A DNA stretch of 64,000 bases from a virus, in the UHGV virus genome UHGV-0300374. One strand, 5' to 3'. Position numbers and translations under genes: made by a program. Numbering within the stretch: the first letter of the stretch is position 1; every line of letters begins with the position of its first letter. This document shows, piece by piece, positions 1-22,116 of the stretch. The notes beneath the pieces were generated by a model. It saw nothing but the letters and a program-made list of their open reading frames with translations. It did not search any database and was not told the DNA's origin.

Positions 1-319
1 TACGGCTGAACAAGCTGAACAGTATCTTCTTGCAGATGTTGAAAAATTCGTTGCAGCAGTTAACAAAGCTATCAAGGTTCCAACTTCTCAGAATGAGTTT
101 GATGCACTTGTAAGTGAAACATACAACATTGGTATCACGGCTATGCAGGACTCCACATTTATCAAGCGCCACAATGCTGGTAATAAGGTTGGTTGTGCAG
201 AAGCTATGCAGTGGTGGAACAAGGTCACAGTCAAAGGTAAGAAGGTCACTTCAAACGGCCTGAAAAACAGACGTAGAATGGAAGCTGACATTTATCTTGA
301 CAGTGTATATCCAAAGTAA
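1..319 (+). CDS. endolysin, GH24 phage lysozyme family, C-terminal part (5' end outside window)
   Basis: Frame-2 translation ...SQNEFDALVSETYNIGITAMQDSTFIKRHNAG...GLKNRRRMEADIYL matches the conserved C-terminal lobe of T4/P22-type lysozymes; stop TAA 317-319. The antisense track ORF 88-291 is rejected. Confidence 0.75.
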   Translation, partial: TAEQAEQYLLADVEKFVAAVNKAIKVPTSQNEFDALVSETYNIGITAMQDSTFIKRHNAGNKVGCAEAMQWWNKVTVKGKKVTSNGLKNRRRMEADIYLDSVYPK

Positions 320-2998: not shown

Positions 2999-3213
2999 AA
3001 AAGTTAACTACAGTTGAAGATTACTACAAACTATCCCTGTTAGAGCAGTATCGCAGAAGCCAGAATATCAGAAAATGCTATGGTAAACACGCTGAAGGTG
3101 ACTTTTACCGTTGTTACGATGCAGATTTAAAAGGTGTAACACCTAGAGGGAAAGTCCTGCAAAGACTTGTTGACCTTGAGTGGAACAAACGATTGAGAGG
3201 GTTTGGAAAATGA
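2995..3213 (+). CDS. hypothetical protein
   Basis: 72-aa ORF overlapping neighbours by 4 nt. Confidence 0.35.
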   Translation: MKKLTTVEDYYKLSLLEQYRRSQNIRKCYGKHAEGDFYRCYDADLKGVTPRGKVLQRLVDLEWNKRLRGFGK

Positions 3214-3713
3214 TTTACGAAGAAAGATACAAAATAGATTACCAGAAGACTGGTCATCATACTTCTCTTAGAGTAACCAAACCGAATGGAGATACCGGTA
3301 TCATAGCACATTTTGGTGGTGATTATTGGTACGGTACAGGTTGCTTTGAGGGCTACAGTCAAGAATACTTGAAAGCTTTCTACAGAGACTTTACAAACGA
3401 CTACAACAGGGTTGTTGACGAAAAGAACAAGTGCATTAAGCATGAATATCATGCCAGAGGCTGCCTAAATATTGTTATGATACTAGTGTTCTTCTTAGCA
3501 ACATTACTAGCTGTATCAGCAATCAGCTACATAGCTCAAGACTTGACAATTACACAGATTACTGCAAAGCTACATGATATCTGGTACTTGTATGTTGTTC
3601 CTTTAGCTGGTATCATCATCTCACTAATGAGGTTCAGAGTTCATAAGAAACGACTTAAGGATTCTGAGGTTAAACTTGAAGAGGTAAGTAAAGAATGCAA
3701 CCTACAATTATAG
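3210..3713 (+). CDS. hypothetical membrane protein (two predicted TM helices)
   Basis: ATG 3210 overlaps upstream TGA (ATGA); hydrophobic segments LNIVMILVFFLATLLAVSAISYI and YLYVVPLAGIIISLM. Confidence 0.4.
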   Translation: MIYEERYKIDYQKTGHHTSLRVTKPNGDTGIIAHFGGDYWYGTGCFEGYSQEYLKAFYRDFTNDYNRVVDEKNKCIKHEYHARGCLNIVMILVFFLATLLAVSAISYIAQDLTITQITAKLHDIWYLYVVPLAGIIISLMRFRVHKKRLKDSEVKLEEVSKECNLQL

Positions 3714-5505: not shown

Positions 5506-5514
5506 AATATCTTA

Positions 5515-5542
5515 AGAGCCTCCTTAATTGGGGGCTTTTTAT
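5515..5542 (+). terminator. probable rho-independent terminator
   Basis: Imperfect hairpin AGAGCCTCC-TTAATT-GGGGGCT followed by TTTTTATT. Confidence 0.4.
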
Positions 5543-5544
5543 TG

Positions 5545-7130
5545 AGTAAAATTTACGAAATTTATATTTTTATAAAATTTTATCGGTTGTCCCAACCTCT
5601 GGGTCACCATCATATGTGAACAAAATATCTACCCTTCTTAACAACCTTCTTAATCTTACTCTCTATATAGTTATATAGTACTATATAGTATCTTAGTAAC
5701 TATCTAGTGGTCTTAATAGCCCTCTGTATAGCCCTTCTAAATAGCCATCTAAACACTCTTCTAACAAGCCTTCTAAACAACCTATACAATCATCTTAACC
5801 ATCTCTCTACACACTCTTAGAAGCTCCTATACACCTCTTAATCTCTATGTAAGCTATGATACTCTCTATAGGTGTTCACTAGGTATTACTAAGCCTCTAT
5901 ATAGACTGTTTTAGCCAACTTAACAGGAATATCTTTACAGACCTTATCTCACAAGGTCTAACACGGTACTAACAAGGTATCTTATAAGCCTGTTTCTACC
6001 TGTATTTTAGAAAGACTGTATAGGTAATTATTCAGAATTTTAAAATTTTTATAAAATAGGACTATCAAGTCATTTTTTAGGGTCTTTGAAGGAACTGAAA
6101 AATATCTGATTAGGATGTATATCTGCTTGGTAGCCCTTAACAGCTCCCTTACAAGTACTTTGCAAAATTTTAAAATATCCTTAACAATCTCTTAACAGTT
6201 CTCACATCTTCTTAACAACTCTTCAAAGGTCTTAACAGATTCTTAACAAGTCTAACAAGGTTGTAACAGTTTTCTAACAAGACTTAATAGGGCTTTACAG
6301 AATCTTAACAGATGACTAACAAGAGCTAACAAGTTAATTTTAAAGAGTTATTTTGTTAAGATAATTAACAAGTTTCTAACAAGTGTTTAATCTTTTTAAC
6401 AAGCTATTAACATGGTCACTATCTCTTTCTTATCGTTCCCTTTCCCTTCTTAGTGATTCCTTAAACATACCTCTTAAAAGCTCTCTATAGCTCTCTATAG
6501 CTCTTTATAAGCCCCTTTAAGCCTCTTCCTAGTATTTACCCCCCAACTGTACAGATAGCTCTTTATAGGTCTTTACAGGAGCTTTTAAGGCTATGTCAAA
6601 GACTCTTACAAGGCTTTTACGTGGTCTTAACAGAGATTTAACAAGGGGCTAACAAGTTGCTAACAAGTGCCTTAAAAGCATAACTATGTAGGGTTTGTTA
6701 AGAAATTGTTAAGAAAATGTTAAGGGGGCTAGCATTTACGTAACTTTATAGCCTCTTTTACGTAACTTTGAAGTAACTTTATAGCCCCTATAACATGTTT
6801 TTTAGTGACTAGCAAGGGGGTTGTTTAACCATTCACAAGATACTAACCAGCCTATAAGCTTACACCCTTATAAGATTCTTTTAAGCCTCTATAAAGCCCT
6901 GTAAAGAGCTTTTTAAGATAGGTTAATGCAATCCCTTAAGTTAGGTTGATAAGGCTGTTATAGAGCTTTATAGAGCGTTTAAATGGGCCATCCCCTTTCT
7001 GGGGTTATTGGCTTTTATTTAAGTTGATTTGATAAAAGGTTATAGAGTAGACTATAGAGTTATTGCTTTTAAGGTCTGATAAGATTCTGGAAAGGAAAGG
7101 GAAAGGGATTGTATAAGGATTCGATAGACG
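5545..7130. repeat. ORF-free block of short degenerate direct repeats (YTAACAAG, CTNTATAG, CTTTTAAG units) at roughly 10-11 bp spacing
   Basis: No ORF of 60 aa or more on either strand across 1.6 kb; dense recurrence of cttaacaag / ctaacaag / ctctatag / ctttatag words. Confidence 0.6.
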
Positions 7131-7156
7131 TAAAAAAGCCCCTATTTAAAGGGGCT
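7131..7156 (-). terminator. rho-independent terminator ending the minus-strand small-gene array
   Basis: Minus-strand AGCCCCTTTAAATAGGGGCT hairpin followed by TTTTTTAC. Confidence 0.5.
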
Positions 7157-7194
7157 GTTCAGGTATCTGGGGCTATTTAGCCCCGCTGCGTCGA

Positions 7195-14219: not shown

Positions 14220-15005
14220 TTAGTTCTTTGCGTCTAAGAAGGTAACTTCTGGTGAAGAGAAGATTGCCTCGATATCCTCATCAGTTCTTGCATAGATATA
14301 AGCTTCTGCATCACTACCAAATGTTACAGCAATTCTGTGATTGCTCTTTGACAGGTGGGTAACTAGAGCGTTACTTAGAGACATCTTTTCAACCGGAGGG
14401 TTACTTTGATGTATCTTACCTTTTCTTCGTCTGAAGAGGGTAACTGCATTATCCGTGAACACTGCTACACCTGCAAAGTATTCTGGTTCACAGTAGTTCT
14501 TCCAACCTGAGAGTAACTTGTGGTACATCTCTCCTTCATAGACATATAGATAAACATCTACACTCTTCATAACCTGATTGATGATAACTGTGACGGCTTG
14601 AGAGTCTAGTCCACCGATACCTGCACCAATCATAGGTAACCCAACTTTCTTCAACTGATTGACTTCACAGTATCTGTTAAGTTGTTTCAAAGATGACTCT
14701 AAAGCACTGTATCGGGCATCTTTACCAGTCTTAAGCTGAGTGTAAAGGTTAGCTATACGGCCTTGTTCTAAACGTGCTACAGAGAAATTACCCAGTAAAT
14801 TTTCACAGGGTTTGTGACCTATACCACCTGCATAGAGGTAAACTTCTGTATCGGTCTCATATGCTTTTGGGTAAAGTTTAGAAATCTTGTCAGCGATACC
14901 TGCACCCATTAAATTCATACAGTTGCAACCGTGACCAATAATATCAAACTTACCTTTATCAAATGCTGAGAAGATATCCCCATTGATGATTTTTACAATA
15001 CCCAT
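14220..15005 (-). CDS. macro-domain protein (TARG1/OARD1/DarG-like, ADP-ribose binding or hydrolase) with uncharacterised C-terminal domain of about 110 aa
   Basis: IINGDIF...DIIGHGCNCMNLMGAGIADKI and VGLPMIGAGIGGLD resemble the two glycine-rich ADP-ribose-binding loops of TARG1-type macrodomains. Confidence 0.6.
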   Translation of the reverse strand: MGIVKIINGDIFSAFDKGKFDIIGHGCNCMNLMGAGIADKISKLYPKAYETDTEVYLYAGGIGHKPCENLLGNFSVARLEQGRIANLYTQLKTGKDARYSALESSLKQLNRYCEVNQLKKVGLPMIGAGIGGLDSQAVTVIINQVMKSVDVYLYVYEGEMYHKLLSGWKNYCEPEYFAGVAVFTDNAVTLFRRRKGKIHQSNPPVEKMSLSNALVTHLSKSNHRIAVTFGSDAEAYIYARTDEDIEAIFSSPEVTFLDAKN

Positions 15006-15729: not shown

Positions 15730-15999
15730 TTACTTCCTCGTTTTAAGAACTGCTAAGATTTCTTTAGAGTCTGGTAAGAACCATGTGTAGTGATTCTCTT
15801 TGATTTCTGGATGAGTGTCAACCTTTATTTTGCACTCTTTACCAACATGCTTAAGCTGTGCTGTGACACCTTGCATAAAGATATGGCACATCACATTATC
15901 CATAATGGTTGGTAAGAAATCAATTCGCATATAAGTTTCTTTTGGTCGTGGCAACAGTAAGTAACCTTCTACATAGAAAGTGTCTTGATTCTCTGTCAT
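15730..15999 (-). CDS. hypothetical protein
   Basis: 89-aa ORF. Confidence 0.4.
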   Translation of the reverse strand: MTENQDTFYVEGYLLLPRPKETYMRIDFLPTIMDNVMCHIFMQGVTAQLKHVGKECKIKVDTHPEIKENHYTWFLPDSKEILAVLKTRK

Positions 16000-16265
16000 T
16001 GCTGCTTATTCCCTAATAAAATCATGTCAATAAGGTTGTTAGCTTTGATTGTGCACTGGTAAAAGCCGTCACGATAGAACTCAAGGGCTGCTGCTACATC
16101 ACTGCCTGTGTTACCTTTGATGATATACCGTGATTCTTCTTGAGTGTACTTATCACTCTCACTTACTTGGGAGTTTTTGAATGTACTGCTCACTTTGTTC
16201 GTTGAACACCCTGACATAGTTATCAGTAACACAAACATTATAAAACTCTGGCTTAGTTTTTTCAT
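15996..16265 (-). CDS. outer-membrane lipoprotein, o-spanin (Rz1-like) candidate
   Basis: Signal peptide with lipobox-like ...LITMSGC; start lies inside the 3' end of the upstream i-spanin-like gene in another frame. Confidence 0.45.
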   Translation of the reverse strand: MKKLSQSFIMFVLLITMSGCSTNKVSSTFKNSQVSESDKYTQEESRYIIKGNTGSDVAAALEFYRDGFYQCTIKANNLIDMILLGNKQQ

Positions 16266-16506
16266 ATGTTAGTACCTCTTTTGTATGCTTATTCTTAGCA
16301 AGCACATCTTTCAAATCATTTTTGTAATTGGTGCTCAGTGTGACTAACCCTTCCTGATAAGCATCTTTAGCAACACTTATGAGCTTTTGATTGTTTAGCT
16401 CAGTTTCAGCAACTTGATAGTCTCTGTAAGAGTATCCTCCCCAGACACCTGCACCAACTAAGAAAACAATTATGAAAGTAGCTTGACAGAACTCTTTAAA
16501 TGTCAT
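16159..16506 (-). CDS. i-spanin (Rz-like) candidate
   Basis: N-terminal TM helix FIIVFLVGAGVWGGY followed by a predicted periplasmic helical domain; overlaps the lipoprotein gene. Confidence 0.45.
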   Translation of the reverse strand: MTFKEFCQATFIIVFLVGAGVWGGYSYRDYQVAETELNNQKLISVAKDAYQEGLVTLSTNYKNDLKDVLAKNKHTKEVLTYEKTKPEFYNVCVTDNYVRVFNEQSEQYIQKLPSK

Positions 16507-16520
16507 TTAACAATCTCCTG

Positions 16521-16547
16521 AAATGAAAAAGGCTCCCGAAGGAGCCT
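16521..16547 (-). terminator. rho-independent terminator or attenuator
   Basis: Minus-strand AGGCTCC-TTCG-GGAGCCT followed by TTTTTCATTT. Confidence 0.5.
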
Positions 16548-16558
16548 GTATCTTAACC

Positions 16559-17023
16559 TTAACCGAGGACTTTAGCAAGGACATTTGCAGCCATCGAAGA
16601 AGCTTTTGCAGCAGCAGCTACCCCAGCTTTGACAGTGCTATCCTTGATAGCAGATACCGTTGCAGCATCAGTAAAGAGATAAGTAGTTGTTTTAGAACCA
16701 CTTGTAAAGGAAAGCATAAGAGCAGTTTCCAGATTGAAAGAGCGATACGGAGCACCTTCTTTAACGATACCTTCAGCACCTAATTCTGAAGCCATCCCCA
16801 TATCATAGATAGTCATCAGGTTTTCTTTGTGTGCTGTGGTTGAGCCAGAACCCTTTACGTGTTTCTTAACATTCAAAAGAGCACGATACTCTCGGATGTT
16901 ACCGTCTGCTTTTACGTTGACAGCACGGAAGATTTTACCCTCAAAGTTGCTCTTGATAATGTTACGAACTACTTCAGATTTGTTTGCCGTAACGTCAAGT
17001 GCTACCGTAATGATATTGTTCAT
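16559..17023 (-). CDS. hypothetical protein (Ala-rich C-terminus)
   Basis: 154-aa ORF. Confidence 0.45.
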   Translation of the reverse strand: MNNIITVALDVTANKSEVVRNIIKSNFEGKIFRAVNVKADGNIREYRALLNVKKHVKGSGSTTAHKENLMTIYDMGMASELGAEGIVKEGAPYRSFNLETALMLSFTSGSKTTTYLFTDAATVSAIKDSTVKAGVAAAAKASSMAANVLAKVLG

Positions 17024-17033
17024 AAGTTTTCTC

Positions 17034-17729
17034 TCAATGTTTAACTAACATGGTTTTGATGTGTGGAAGGATTCTGTTCACCTTCTGCACATTCTTCTCT
17101 GTGTCTTCTATAAAACATACTATATTAAAGTAAGGCAGAATGCAAGACTGAATCATCCTCACTTTCAAACTTTCTGCACTTATAGAGTTAGTCCCAAAAC
17201 CACGCATAAAAAGCATGTAGTCATGCTCTGTGTTATGCCTTAAAAACATCTCAGTAGGTATTCTCTGAGATTCACCTCTCGCTGTCAAGAGTCCAACAGC
17301 AGCATGATTAGCAATTGCATCAATGATATTGAAAACATACGTTGGTTTTGCTCTTACAGAGTCAAGAAGATTAGTGTACTGCGAGAATGAACCGTCAGTC
17401 AATTCCGTTGAACAATCTTCGTGATTAAAATTTGTAAGAACACCATCAATATCTGCTAAGATGAGATTCCCTTTTTCTACAAGGTCTTTATTGACTATGA
17501 CTAAGCTATCACGACTTACACCTATAGTTTGTCCAGTCTCTTTATCTACAACATTCACAATTGGCTCTGATGTGTGAAACTCTTCTAGTGAACATACAAC
17601 TTCTCTTGCAGTGTCTTCAAAATCCCTACACTGTTCTGGAGTCCATACACAGGAATCAAGACCTAACTCATAAGGATGTAAGTCATAAGCGTGACACAGT
17701 ACTTCATCAGACTTTTTTAATTTTTTCAT
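17034..17729 (-). CDS. HAD-superfamily hydrolase, possibly NT5C-like 5'(3')-deoxyribonucleotidase, with N-terminal extension
   Basis: LILADIDGVLTNF (HAD motif I, DxDGV), GLLTARGES (motif II), CFIEDTEKN (motif IV-like). Confidence 0.5.
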   Translation of the reverse strand: MKKLKKSDEVLCHAYDLHPYELGLDSCVWTPEQCRDFEDTAREVVCSLEEFHTSEPIVNVVDKETGQTIGVSRDSLVIVNKDLVEKGNLILADIDGVLTNFNHEDCSTELTDGSFSQYTNLLDSVRAKPTYVFNIIDAIANHAAVGLLTARGESQRIPTEMFLRHNTEHDYMLFMRGFGTNSISAESLKVRMIQSCILPYFNIVCFIEDTEKNVQKVNRILPHIKTMLVKH

Positions 17730-18255
17730 GGTTTACCTTAGAAATGTTTGTTGCAAATTCACATTGAGCAATAACTTTCATGTTGTTATAGACATCTTGA
17801 GAATATTTCTTAGCTTTAGGGATTCTGTACGAATACCCAGCATTATATGATGCTAAAACTTTTTGTAAAGTCTTCTTTGACTTTGGCTGACCATGCACCT
17901 TTGTCCAAAACTCAAGCTCTTTGTGAGTTTCCTTCGCAGCATAATCAAAGTCTCTTAAGAGTTTCTTTTTAGCCACATTAGGGCTAATTTTGTTACGCTT
18001 TACAACAGTCTTCAAGTGATTCTGGAAAATACCATAATCATGTGTCTTTTTATTCTCTACCTTCAGACCTAACTCTGACTCTTGTAAGGCTATAGCAGCT
18101 AGAGTGATACCCCAACCTTTACCCATGTTATTCTCACCATACTGGTAAGCTTTTAACATGTTTACTTTTTGGCTAATTGATAGCTCTGGGCAGTTAACTG
18201 CATAAGATAAGTGTGCTGTAAACATTAAGCACAAACCTAGAATCAATTTCTTCAT
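17707..18255 (-). CDS. secreted lytic transglycosylase (SLT domain) with signal peptide
   Basis: N-terminal MKKLILGLCLMFTAHLSYA; SLT motifs ALQESELG (catalytic E-S), YGIFQN, LASYNAGYSY. Confidence 0.6.
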   Translation of the reverse strand: MKKLILGLCLMFTAHLSYAVNCPELSISQKVNMLKAYQYGENNMGKGWGITLAAIALQESELGLKVENKKTHDYGIFQNHLKTVVKRNKISPNVAKKKLLRDFDYAAKETHKELEFWTKVHGQPKSKKTLQKVLASYNAGYSYRIPKAKKYSQDVYNNMKVIAQCEFATNISKVNHEKIKKV

Positions 18256-18312
18256 TGGTTCTCCTGTTTAGTTTATCGTGACAACAATTATACAGTACTC
18301 TGCACAAAACAC

Positions 18313-18340
18313 AAATAAAAAAGGCCGCCGAAGCAGCCTT
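18313..18340 (-). terminator. rho-independent terminator after rIIB-like gene
   Basis: Minus-strand AAGGCTGC-TTCG-GCGGCCTT followed by TTTTTTATTT. Confidence 0.5.
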
Positions 18341-18355
18341 TTAAGAAATTACTTA

Positions 18356-21939: not shown

Positions 21940-22116
21940 TTACTTATTAAACATTTTACCAGAACCACCACACATAGGGCAACATCCTGCCCTTATGTAC
22001 CCCTCTCCATTACAGTAGTCACATTTTTTGTGCTCTGCAAAGTACTTACAAAGGAGGTAAACAAATACTGCTACACTACCAAGTGACAGTAAAATTTCTA
22101 TCCAATATGCTTGCAT
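21940..22116 (-). CDS. hypothetical small membrane zinc-ribbon protein (58 aa)
   Basis: Below the track cut-off; MQAYWIEILLSLGSVAVFVYLL... then CDYC...CPMCGG; RBS GAGG upstream. Confidence 0.3.
   Translation of the reverse strand: MQAYWIEILLSLGSVAVFVYLLCKYFAEHKKCDYCNGEGYIRAGCCPMCGGSGKMFNK

Follow-up and report, generated by a model that had tools for sequence, protein, structure and literature searches.

We analyzed a 64,000-nucleotide stretch of viral DNA from UHGV virus genome UHGV-0300374 (the window, by which we mean the whole stretch), focusing on a pair of overlapping spanin genes and a nearby gene whose product resembles SLT-type cell-wall enzymes. We think it quite likely that this locus combines, in a Felix O1-like phage, the overlapped spanins already known for that group with a wall enzyme of the T4 Vs.1 type that is exported from the cytoplasm. 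The spanins, the gene labeled 'putative lysin' and the scattered layout of the lysis genes have all been annotated and published for the Felix O1 group. Our comparisons of sequences add the size of the Vs.1 family, its near-universal signal peptide, its invariant active site and a pair of co-varying cysteines.

The 2.8 kb around the locus matched many Felixounavirus genomes, including those of Escherichia phage Andreotti and Salmonella phage Meda, over its full length at 97–98% identity, and 258 phage records matched this stretch. By this similarity the window is the genome of a Felix O1-like myovirus (Felixounavirus). The matching records annotate, in order, rIIA, rIIB, a 'putative lysin' or hypothetical protein, polynucleotide kinase, a hypothetical protein, i-spanin and o-spanin; the same genes are ORF1 to ORF7 of the Felix O1 reference. 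A first-pass annotation, made from the letters of the DNA, had singled out three open reading frames (ORFs) on the minus strand, and we recovered all three at the same positions. The features at issue are:

16159–16506, minus strand: i-spanin gene, 115 amino acids; ORF with an N-terminal anchor at residues 6–24; phrog_1152; annotated I-spanin in Meda and Andreotti
15996–16265, minus strand: o-spanin gene, 89 amino acids; ORF with the lipobox MSGC; phrog_4180; annotated O-spanin in Meda
16159–16265, minus strand: doubly coding overlap of 107 nt, encoding i-spanin residues 81–115 and o-spanin residues 1–35 in different frames
17707–18255, minus strand: gene for a putative Vs.1-family secreted SLT/GH23-like enzyme, 182 amino acids, ortholog of Felix O1 ORF3; phrog_600; Glu59; Cys22 and Cys165
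18199–18255, minus strand: region coding for a predicted cleavable Sec signal peptide, residues 1–19, MKKLILGLCLMFTAHLSYA; cut predicted before VNCPE

The Vs.1-family protein and its predicted export

The SLT-like protein (182 amino acids, beginning with MKKLILGLCLMFTAHLSYA and continuing with VNCPE) matched the profile phrog_600, whose label is 'unknown function', with E = 1.9e-57, and T4 Vs.1 matched the same profile with E = 2.1e-68. Aligned directly, the two proteins are 32% identical (E = 2e-16). Judged by these matches, the product of 17707–18255 is the ortholog of T4 Vs.1 (PHROG 600). The GenBank label of Felix O1 ORF3 reads 'hypothetical 20.7 KD protein in vs-regB intergenic region', and several GenBank records call the protein 'putative lysin'. 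T4 Vs.1 has the same length as the window protein, a signal-peptide-like N-terminus and the ES, GxFQ and SYNxG motifs; it lacks the cysteine pair described below and lies next to regB and vs, whereas the window gene adjoins rIIB and pseT-type genes. For T4 vs.1 itself, a marginal similarity to the SLT domain was noted earlier, and 'some role in cell lysis' was suggested (Nolan et al., 2006).

The first-pass annotation had read the product as a signal-peptide protein with SLT motifs, a description that held up, with the signal peptide called by a heuristic. The motifs comprise E59-S60 (within QES), G75-I-F-Q78, S136-Y-N-A-G140 (within SYNAGYSY) and Y151; all are conserved, and E59, G63, Q78, Y137, N138, G140 and Y151 were invariant in our first set of homologs. 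A translated search found Vs.1-family homologs in 2,122 phage records, mostly from T4-like phages of Escherichia, Klebsiella, Vibrio, Aeromonas and Acinetobacter, plus Ackermannviridae. Searching 1.84 billion representative proteins exhaustively with a profile returned 598 clusters (cut-off, E up to 1e-10), nearly all of them single-domain proteins of 160–200 amino acids. For scoring, we combined 147 new proteins from the profile search with 20 found earlier, a set of 167 proteins and 168 match rows. In a hidden Markov model alignment of this set, E59, Y137, G140 and Y151 were invariant (167 of 167), and S60, G63 and W117 were present in 161, 164 and 155 proteins, respectively. One homolog, P0020, is filed under Campylobacter coli; we rejected a bacterial origin for it on the strength of a PhiKZ-type chimallin (phage-nucleus shell) gene on its contig (L019; GCA_053226485.1, 214,766 bp), 1.4 kb from P0020. 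This 214-kb contig therefore appears to be a nucleus-forming jumbo phage that sits within a Campylobacter assembly.

Structural comparison points to the same class of enzyme. The best sequence match to a solved structure, obtained with a profile of the first homolog set, was the type III secretion transglycosylase EtgA (E = 7.5e-5). The AlphaFold model of the SLT-like protein is confident (pLDDT 85.5, pTM 0.80) and has a lysozyme-like alpha-helical fold that can be superimposed on solved transglycosylases. The more distant homologs P0015, P0016 and P0018–P0020 have precomputed matches to Pfam PF01464, and NCBIfam returned nothing useful for five proteins of the locus. EtgA and the family-1 transglycosylases MltE, Slt70 and MltC resemble the window protein in being small, Sec-exported, single-domain enzymes of the GH23 fold with a Glu-Ser pair; they differ in that identity is about 20%, that no EscI-like partner is known for the SLT-like protein, and that the latter is phage-encoded, outside a secretion-system locus. 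From the fold and the conserved glutamate we propose that the enzyme would cleave glycan strands with Glu59 as its catalytic acid, within a lytic-transglycosylase or goose-lysozyme (GH23) fold.

A classical signal peptide, divided into n-, h- and c-regions and with small residues at –3 and –1, was present in all ten phage lineages that we inspected. A simple heuristic called a signal-peptide-like N-terminus in 151 of the 168 match rows, and most of the exceptions appeared to be miscalled starts or signal anchors. The window protein has a short, strongly hydrophobic h-region, LILGLCLMF, and then Ser-Tyr-Ala and, after the predicted cut, Val, a layout common to the family. By heuristic judgment this speaks against a signal-arrest-release (SAR) endolysin, whose N-terminal segment is weakly hydrophobic, rich in Gly, Ala and Ser, and free of a signal-peptidase site, and remains tethered up to the moment of depolarization. 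Nor does the protein resemble a canonical cytoplasmic endolysin in a lysis cassette, as it has a signal peptide and no adjoining small multi-transmembrane ORF. In the family alignment, a cysteine that closely follows the predicted cut and another near the C-terminus occurred together in 78 proteins, were both absent from 77 and occurred singly in only 10, as expected of a structural disulfide in an exported protein. In the mature window protein, Cys22 and Cys165 are therefore very probably joined by a disulfide that ties the N-terminal end to the C-terminal one. The pre-protein would be exported by Sec and cleaved after Ala19, leaving a mature part of about 163 amino acids that would reach the periplasm without a holin. 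An active site kept invariant alongside a signal peptide throughout the family suggests an active enzyme under selection, predicted to work in the periplasm, which it would enter without a holin.

The overlapped spanin pair

The i-spanin has one hydrophobic segment (residues 6–24), matched phrog_1152, 'Rz-like spanin', over its full length (E = 1.1e-41) and carries a conserved C-terminal EKTKPxFYNxC...FNE block. The first-pass annotation had described it as an N-terminal transmembrane helix plus a helical periplasmic domain. The first half of this description stands; for the second, the AlphaFold model, built from a single sequence, is all-helical but at a pLDDT of 47 too poor to use, and it lends the helical content little weight. 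The o-spanin gene does start inside the i-spanin gene in another frame, as claimed, with its lipobox cysteine at position 20. From its start at 16265 it shares 107 nt with the i-spanin gene and extends 163 nt past the i-spanin stop codon. Its product begins with MKKLSQSFIMFVLLITMSGC, with the lipobox M-S-G-C20 followed by Ser-Thr (Ser at +2, no Asp), contains 0 prolines and ends in a conserved ALEFYRDGFYQC..NNLIDMIL block. It matched phrog_4180 with E = 2.2e-50 and the Rz-like spanin profile phrog_456 weakly, with E = 3.4e-4. A Shine-Dalgarno sequence precedes each spanin gene, and within the doubly coding stretch the conserved C-terminus of the i-spanin is paired with the signal peptide and linker of the o-spanin.

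This overlap is kept in Mooglevirus (Moogle), Suspvirus (phiSUSP1), Erwinia Kolesnikvirus phages (phiEa21-4) and Felix O1 (ORF6/ORF7). The out-of-frame ORF, the lipobox cysteine and a periplasmic cysteine, Cys71, persist in Moogle, phiSUSP1 and Erwinia phiEa21-4 even where identity falls to 36% (alignment A3), and Cys92 of the i-spanin is invariant down to the podovirus phiEco32 (alignment A2). Conservation of this kind, at the level of aligned sequences, is far beyond chance. One invariant cysteine in each partner fits the published rule that two-component spanins need periplasmic cysteines for intermolecular disulfides (Kongari et al., 2018). Near-identical phages annotate the I- and O-spanin (Meda, Andreotti), the Meda o-spanin having been identified by the CPT OSP tool, and a published census lists (Felix01, FO1a, UAB_phi87), (FSL_SP-010, FSL_SP-012) and (phiEa104, PhiEa21-4) as overlapped two-component spanins (Kongari et al., 2018). 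By homology, then, 16159–16506 and 15996–16265 are an overlapped two-component spanin already known for the Felix O1 group, and the spanin assignment of the first-pass annotation was right. The spanins of Felix O1 (ORF6/ORF7), Moogle and Meda are identical or near-identical to those of the window (100% for the Meda i-spanin), with the same 107-nt overlap, lipobox and cysteines and without substantive difference; our literature search found no experimental test of the Felix O1, Moogle or Meda pairs.

One other account of the smaller gene is that it encodes a stand-alone outer-membrane lipoprotein, acting for example in superinfection exclusion like Llp of T5 or Cor, and that its overlap is fortuitous. 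A protein devoid of proline differs from the proline-rich Rz1 of lambda, the PHROG that it matches best (4180) has no functional label, and its match to an Rz-like spanin PHROG is the weak one given above. This account is nonetheless very improbable. Throughout Ounavirinae the gene keeps its obligatory pairing with, and its overlap on, the gene of a strong Rz-like i-spanin, both partners retain a periplasmic cysteine as spanins do, and the 89 amino acid protein was picked out by the CPT spanin tool and in the published census. The lack of proline does not disqualify it, since in T4, too, the o-spanin (PseT.2) is a larger, structured protein that is not rich in proline (Kongari et al., 2018).

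By analogy with lambda Rz/Rz1 and T4 PseT.3/PseT.2, the i-spanin, as a type II membrane protein, would use its N-terminal helix as an anchor in the inner membrane, and the o-spanin would receive its lipid at Cys20 and go to the outer membrane. The two would bind by their periplasmic ends, dimerize covalently through Cys92 and Cys71, and fuse both membranes once the wall is destroyed. The T4 pair shares with the window pair a two-component makeup, a position apart from holin and endolysin and beside a pseT-type gene, and transcription long before lysis. It differs in that the T4 genes are separated, whereas those of the window overlap, and in that the T4 i-spanin lacks a periplasmic cysteine and the T4 o-spanin has two, compared with one in each partner here. 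We rejected homology between the two pairs, which have no detectable sequence match; the likeness is architectural only.

Two neighbors of the spanin genes deserve mention. An 89 amino acid gene (15730–15999, minus strand; phrog_4391) begins in an ATGA overlap with the o-spanin stop codon, a position kept in Moogle, phiSUSP1 and Felix O1 (ORF8), and this overlap suggests translational coupling to the spanin genes. About 1 kb downstream of the pair (window 14220–15005) lies a Macro/Appr-1-p gene encoding a T4 Tk.4-like 'phosphatase'. In Erwinia phiEa21-4 and the podovirus phiEco32 (L016 1095–1497; L017 1939–2379), too, a Macro/Appr-1-p gene lies just downstream of the spanin genes, suggesting a spanin-plus-macro module common to unrelated phage families.

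Transcription, gene neighborhood and scattered lysis genes

The remaining features of the locus, and the endolysin gene at the start of the window, are:

18319–18342, minus strand: intrinsic terminator after rIIB, found by scanning; 10-bp GC-rich stem and T-run; terminator in Meda; conserved
18287–18294, minus strand: extended –10 promoter-like element, TGTATAAT, read from the sequence; 32 nt upstream of the SLT start codon
17034–17729, minus strand: 'polynucleotide kinase' gene, 231 amino acids; phrog_3970
16559–17023, minus strand: gene for a conserved 154 amino acid protein, Felix O1 ORF5; phrog_2267, E = 4.2e-50; orthologs in L021 and an Erwinia phage
16530–16547, minus strand: intrinsic terminator between the 154 amino acid gene and the i-spanin gene, found by terminator scan; annotated terminator in Meda
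2–319, plus strand: GH24 endolysin gene, C-terminal 105 codons, ortholog of Felix O1 gp35; Pfam Phage_lysozyme, E = 7.5e-26

The SLT gene lies 1.2 kb from the i-spanin start, closer than the 2 kb of the first-pass annotation. Between them, the 'polynucleotide kinase' gene overlaps the SLT gene by 23 nt, an overlap kept in relatives. In BLASTP, its product aligned with T4 PseT only around the DxDGT motif, in the HAD 3'-phosphatase half, and weakly (E = 0.05); a homolog in L021 gave a faint HAD_PNKP match. The motif ADIDGVLT is present, and on reading the sequence we saw no P-loop kinase motif. From these comparisons, the universal 'polynucleotide kinase' label looks like over-annotation, and we refer to the product as a putative HAD phosphatase. 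The 154 amino acid gene is the last one ahead of the terminator that precedes the spanins.

The strong terminator at 18319–18342 divides the rII genes from the SLT transcription unit. The extended –10 element downstream of it is conserved in phiSUSP1 and PC79-13 despite differing flanks, and the SLT gene would be transcribed together with those of the HAD phosphatase and the 154 amino acid protein from this sigma-70-type promoter of its own. Between the terminator at 16530–16547 and the i-spanin start, we found no convincing sigma-70-like promoter. In Felix O1, reverse transcription PCR places peak expression of ORF3 (the SLT gene), ORF4, ORF6 (i-spanin) and ORF35 (lysin) at 25 min, that of ORF2 and ORF5 at 10 min and that of morphogenesis genes at 60 min. 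In T4, vs.1 and pseT.3 are classed as 'early RNA, middle protein' and pseT.2 as 'early/early'. Taken together, the expression classes of the two phages suggest that the SLT-like protein is made alongside the lysis proteins and well ahead of lysis.

In Ounavirinae, including the Erwinia phages, the gene sits in a conserved block, rIIA-rIIB-(x)-SLT-HAD phosphatase-154 amino acid protein-(x)-spanins-...-Macro/Tk.4. A metagenomic relative (37% identical) keeps the block, but without a spanin near the SLT gene. Elsewhere the surroundings change. In T4-type genomes the homolog lies between regB and vs, the vs.1 position, and in Vibrio and Aeromonas phages it lies beside nrd genes. In the T4-like Cronobacter phage S13 (L013 1498–2680) the order is alc, vs.1 homolog, i-spanin and o-spanin (of the PseT.3/PseT.2 type) and pseT, and the same order recurs in LPCS28 and Citrobacter phage Ci1. 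We therefore rejected a general adjacency of SLT and spanin genes, which we saw only in Ounavirinae and in this S13/LPCS28/Ci1 group. Linkage to rIIA/rIIB holds within Ounavirinae, the metagenomic relative included, and was rejected beyond them: in Vibrio phage XZ1 the large genes upstream belong to the nrd group, and in Det7 the neighbors are of unknown function. As gene order stands, the SLT–spanin link is suggestive, not general, and may stem from a shared pool of T4-type accessory genes (rIIA/B, vs.1, pseT, tk.4).

The GH24 fragment that the first-pass annotation had placed at the window start is indeed there, in a block on the opposite strand and directly after a tail gene ('putative tail protein' in relatives, which have a lysin or endolysin at this position). 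Its suggestion that lysis functions are split between loci is also correct and had already been published: the Felix O1, Moogle and Meda papers describe lysis genes scattered as in T4, without a holin-lysin cassette. The Felix O1 genome paper adds that, as in T4, no holin gene adjoins the lysin gp35, and the Meda announcement identified no holin. The search for a holin next to either wall enzyme that the first-pass annotation had recommended yielded none: the i-spanin is the only membrane-protein ORF adjoining the SLT gene, and the two-transmembrane ORF nearest the lysozyme is at 3210–3713. Directly upstream of rIIA is a 58 amino acid ORF (21940–22116, minus strand) with one N-terminal transmembrane helix and, in its C-terminal part, paired CxxCxGxG-like motifs (CDYCNGEG...CPMCGGSG, a DnaJ-type zinc finger). 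By position it is probably Felix O1 gp131, which is among published holin candidates (Whichard et al.), and it is not like a typical holin. As a third wall enzyme beside the lysozyme we considered 762–1169, whose ortholog in phage nataliec, two genes after the endolysin, is labeled 'D-alanyl-D-alanine carboxypeptidase'; it had no Pfam match at E up to 0.01, and we rejected it, the label being unsupported.

Two observations concern the wider window. A 1.7-kb gap without ORFs (5506–7194) separates divergently oriented gene blocks, and the GC skew flips there. It holds short iterated motifs (CTTAACAAG, CTAACAAG and TAACAG), an 18-nt repeat family in 9 copies and a 41-nt family in 6, and is flanked by terminator-like inverted repeats at 5507–5540 and 7133–7166. 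In phage nataliec the gap is annotated only as 'repeat_region'; it may serve as an origin of the iteron type or in regulation. We detected no tRNA genes in the 64,000 nt. Felix O1-type genomes have about 22 (Felix O1 genome paper), and the tRNA cluster must thus be located elsewhere in the genome, beyond the window.

Possible roles of the secreted enzyme

As in T4, the main lysis would be carried out by the cytoplasmic GH24 endolysin, a putative holin and the spanins. For the SLT-like protein we tentatively favor the role of an accessory wall-cutting enzyme of low or restrained activity, which would be present in the periplasm before lysis and would condition the sacculus or help to dismantle it. 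We hold this role to be possible rather than probable.

Several points weigh against an exported wall enzyme with a part in lysis. The protein scored 19.4 bits against Pfam PF01464, narrowly missing the cut-off of 21.3. Its enzyme class is right as far as sequence can say, at a level that covers both transglycosylases and hydrolytic muramidases, which sequence does not tell apart and which the fold search, likewise, matched about equally (transglycosylases and g-type lysozymes). The signal peptide and its cleavage site are heuristic calls. Use of the promoter at the SLT gene is our reading of its sequence, and the extended –10 element is missing in the Erwinia phage and the metagenomic relative. 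Searching the literature for a Vs.1-family member of tested function returned only the 2006 domain note. The closest precedent for a lytic role, the exported endolysin of Campylobacter phage F352, is an analogy, the two enzymes not being detectably homologous. Finally, T4 e mutants do not lyse. Vs.1 thus cannot replace the endolysin, and any contribution that it makes to lysis would be minor.

The F352 enzyme is the model for a different reading, in which the SLT-like protein is a second endolysin with a signal peptide, exported by Sec, held inactive in the energized periplasm and activated once the membrane potential is collapsed by the holin; on this reading Felix O1-like phages would possess a pair of muralytic enzymes competent for lysis. 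The endolysin of F352 is a Sec-exported SLT-type enzyme activated by holin, and in E. coli lysis assays it required co-expression of the holin and was blocked by sodium azide, an inhibitor of SecA. Like the window protein it has a cleavable signal peptide and a single SLT domain in about 185 amino acids (188 in F352), and it comes from a T4-related phage with lysis genes that are likewise scattered; Lys44 of Oenococcus phage fOg44 is similar in concept. The reading also draws on the expression of Felix O1 ORF3, which peaks with the lysin and i-spanin genes, on the invariant catalytic residues and on the 'putative lysin' of several GenBank records. Against it, the F352 enzyme is the only endolysin of its phage, whereas the window already has a canonical GH24 endolysin. 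We rejected F352 Lys as a member of the Vs.1 family, as it belongs to a different PHROG (phrog_12395) and, whether by profile or pairwise, aligns no further than the signal peptide. In addition, T4 vs.1 RNA is early, and the T4 e mutants that fail to lyse carry vs.1. On balance we regard a second endolysin as unlikely.

Slightly less likely again is a 'space-making' transglycosylase comparable to EtgA, VirB1 or FlgJ, which would open the wall locally for an envelope-spanning structure, most plausibly the spanin complex. The gene is not generally found next to spanins, given the regB/vs and nrd contexts and a distant Ounavirinae-like contig with no spanin nearby, and the linkage may merely mirror a shared ancestral block of T4-type accessory genes. 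The spanins of lambda and T7, moreover, are not known to need any such enzyme. Least credible, and in our view hardly to be entertained, is a virion-borne enzyme that pierces the wall at infection. Many phage SLT domains do belong to tail or internal-core proteins, such as T7 gp16 and phiKZ gp144, which appear lower in our fold list. The window protein, with its predicted cleavable signal peptide and single small domain, is of another kind; its gene lies in an rII/pseT accessory block and not with tail genes, and mass spectrometry, which detected 17 virion proteins in Felix O1, did not show its ortholog among them (Felix O1 genome paper).

A bolder version of the accessory role, which we rate as a long shot, is that the Vs.1 family is a conserved, disulfide-stabilized periplasmic transglycosylase, catalytically intact and with a dedicated job before lysis, exported well ahead of it. 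If so, that job could be to open the wall for assembly of the spanin complex, or to prepare the sacculus for fast action of the endolysin and spanins, and the family would be a fourth, hitherto overlooked component of lysis by phages of Gram-negative hosts. Function, and not history, would then explain why the gene recurs next to spanins and pseT in two distant lineages, and its role would extend across virulent myoviruses of large size, namely Straboviridae, Ackermannviridae, Ounavirinae and some of the jumbo phages.

Among conserved phage protein families of unassigned function, that of T4 Vs.1, with over 2,000 relatives, is one of the large ones. The predicted signal peptide, invariant active site and cysteine pair, together with co-expression with lysis genes, make a testable case for a wall enzyme that is active in the periplasm and exported without a holin. 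Typing, biocontrol and therapy all make wide use of Felix O1-like and T4-like phages, and an envelope-acting enzyme of the Vs.1 type, so far overlooked, could affect their lysis timing, their burst size and their behavior on stationary-phase cells.

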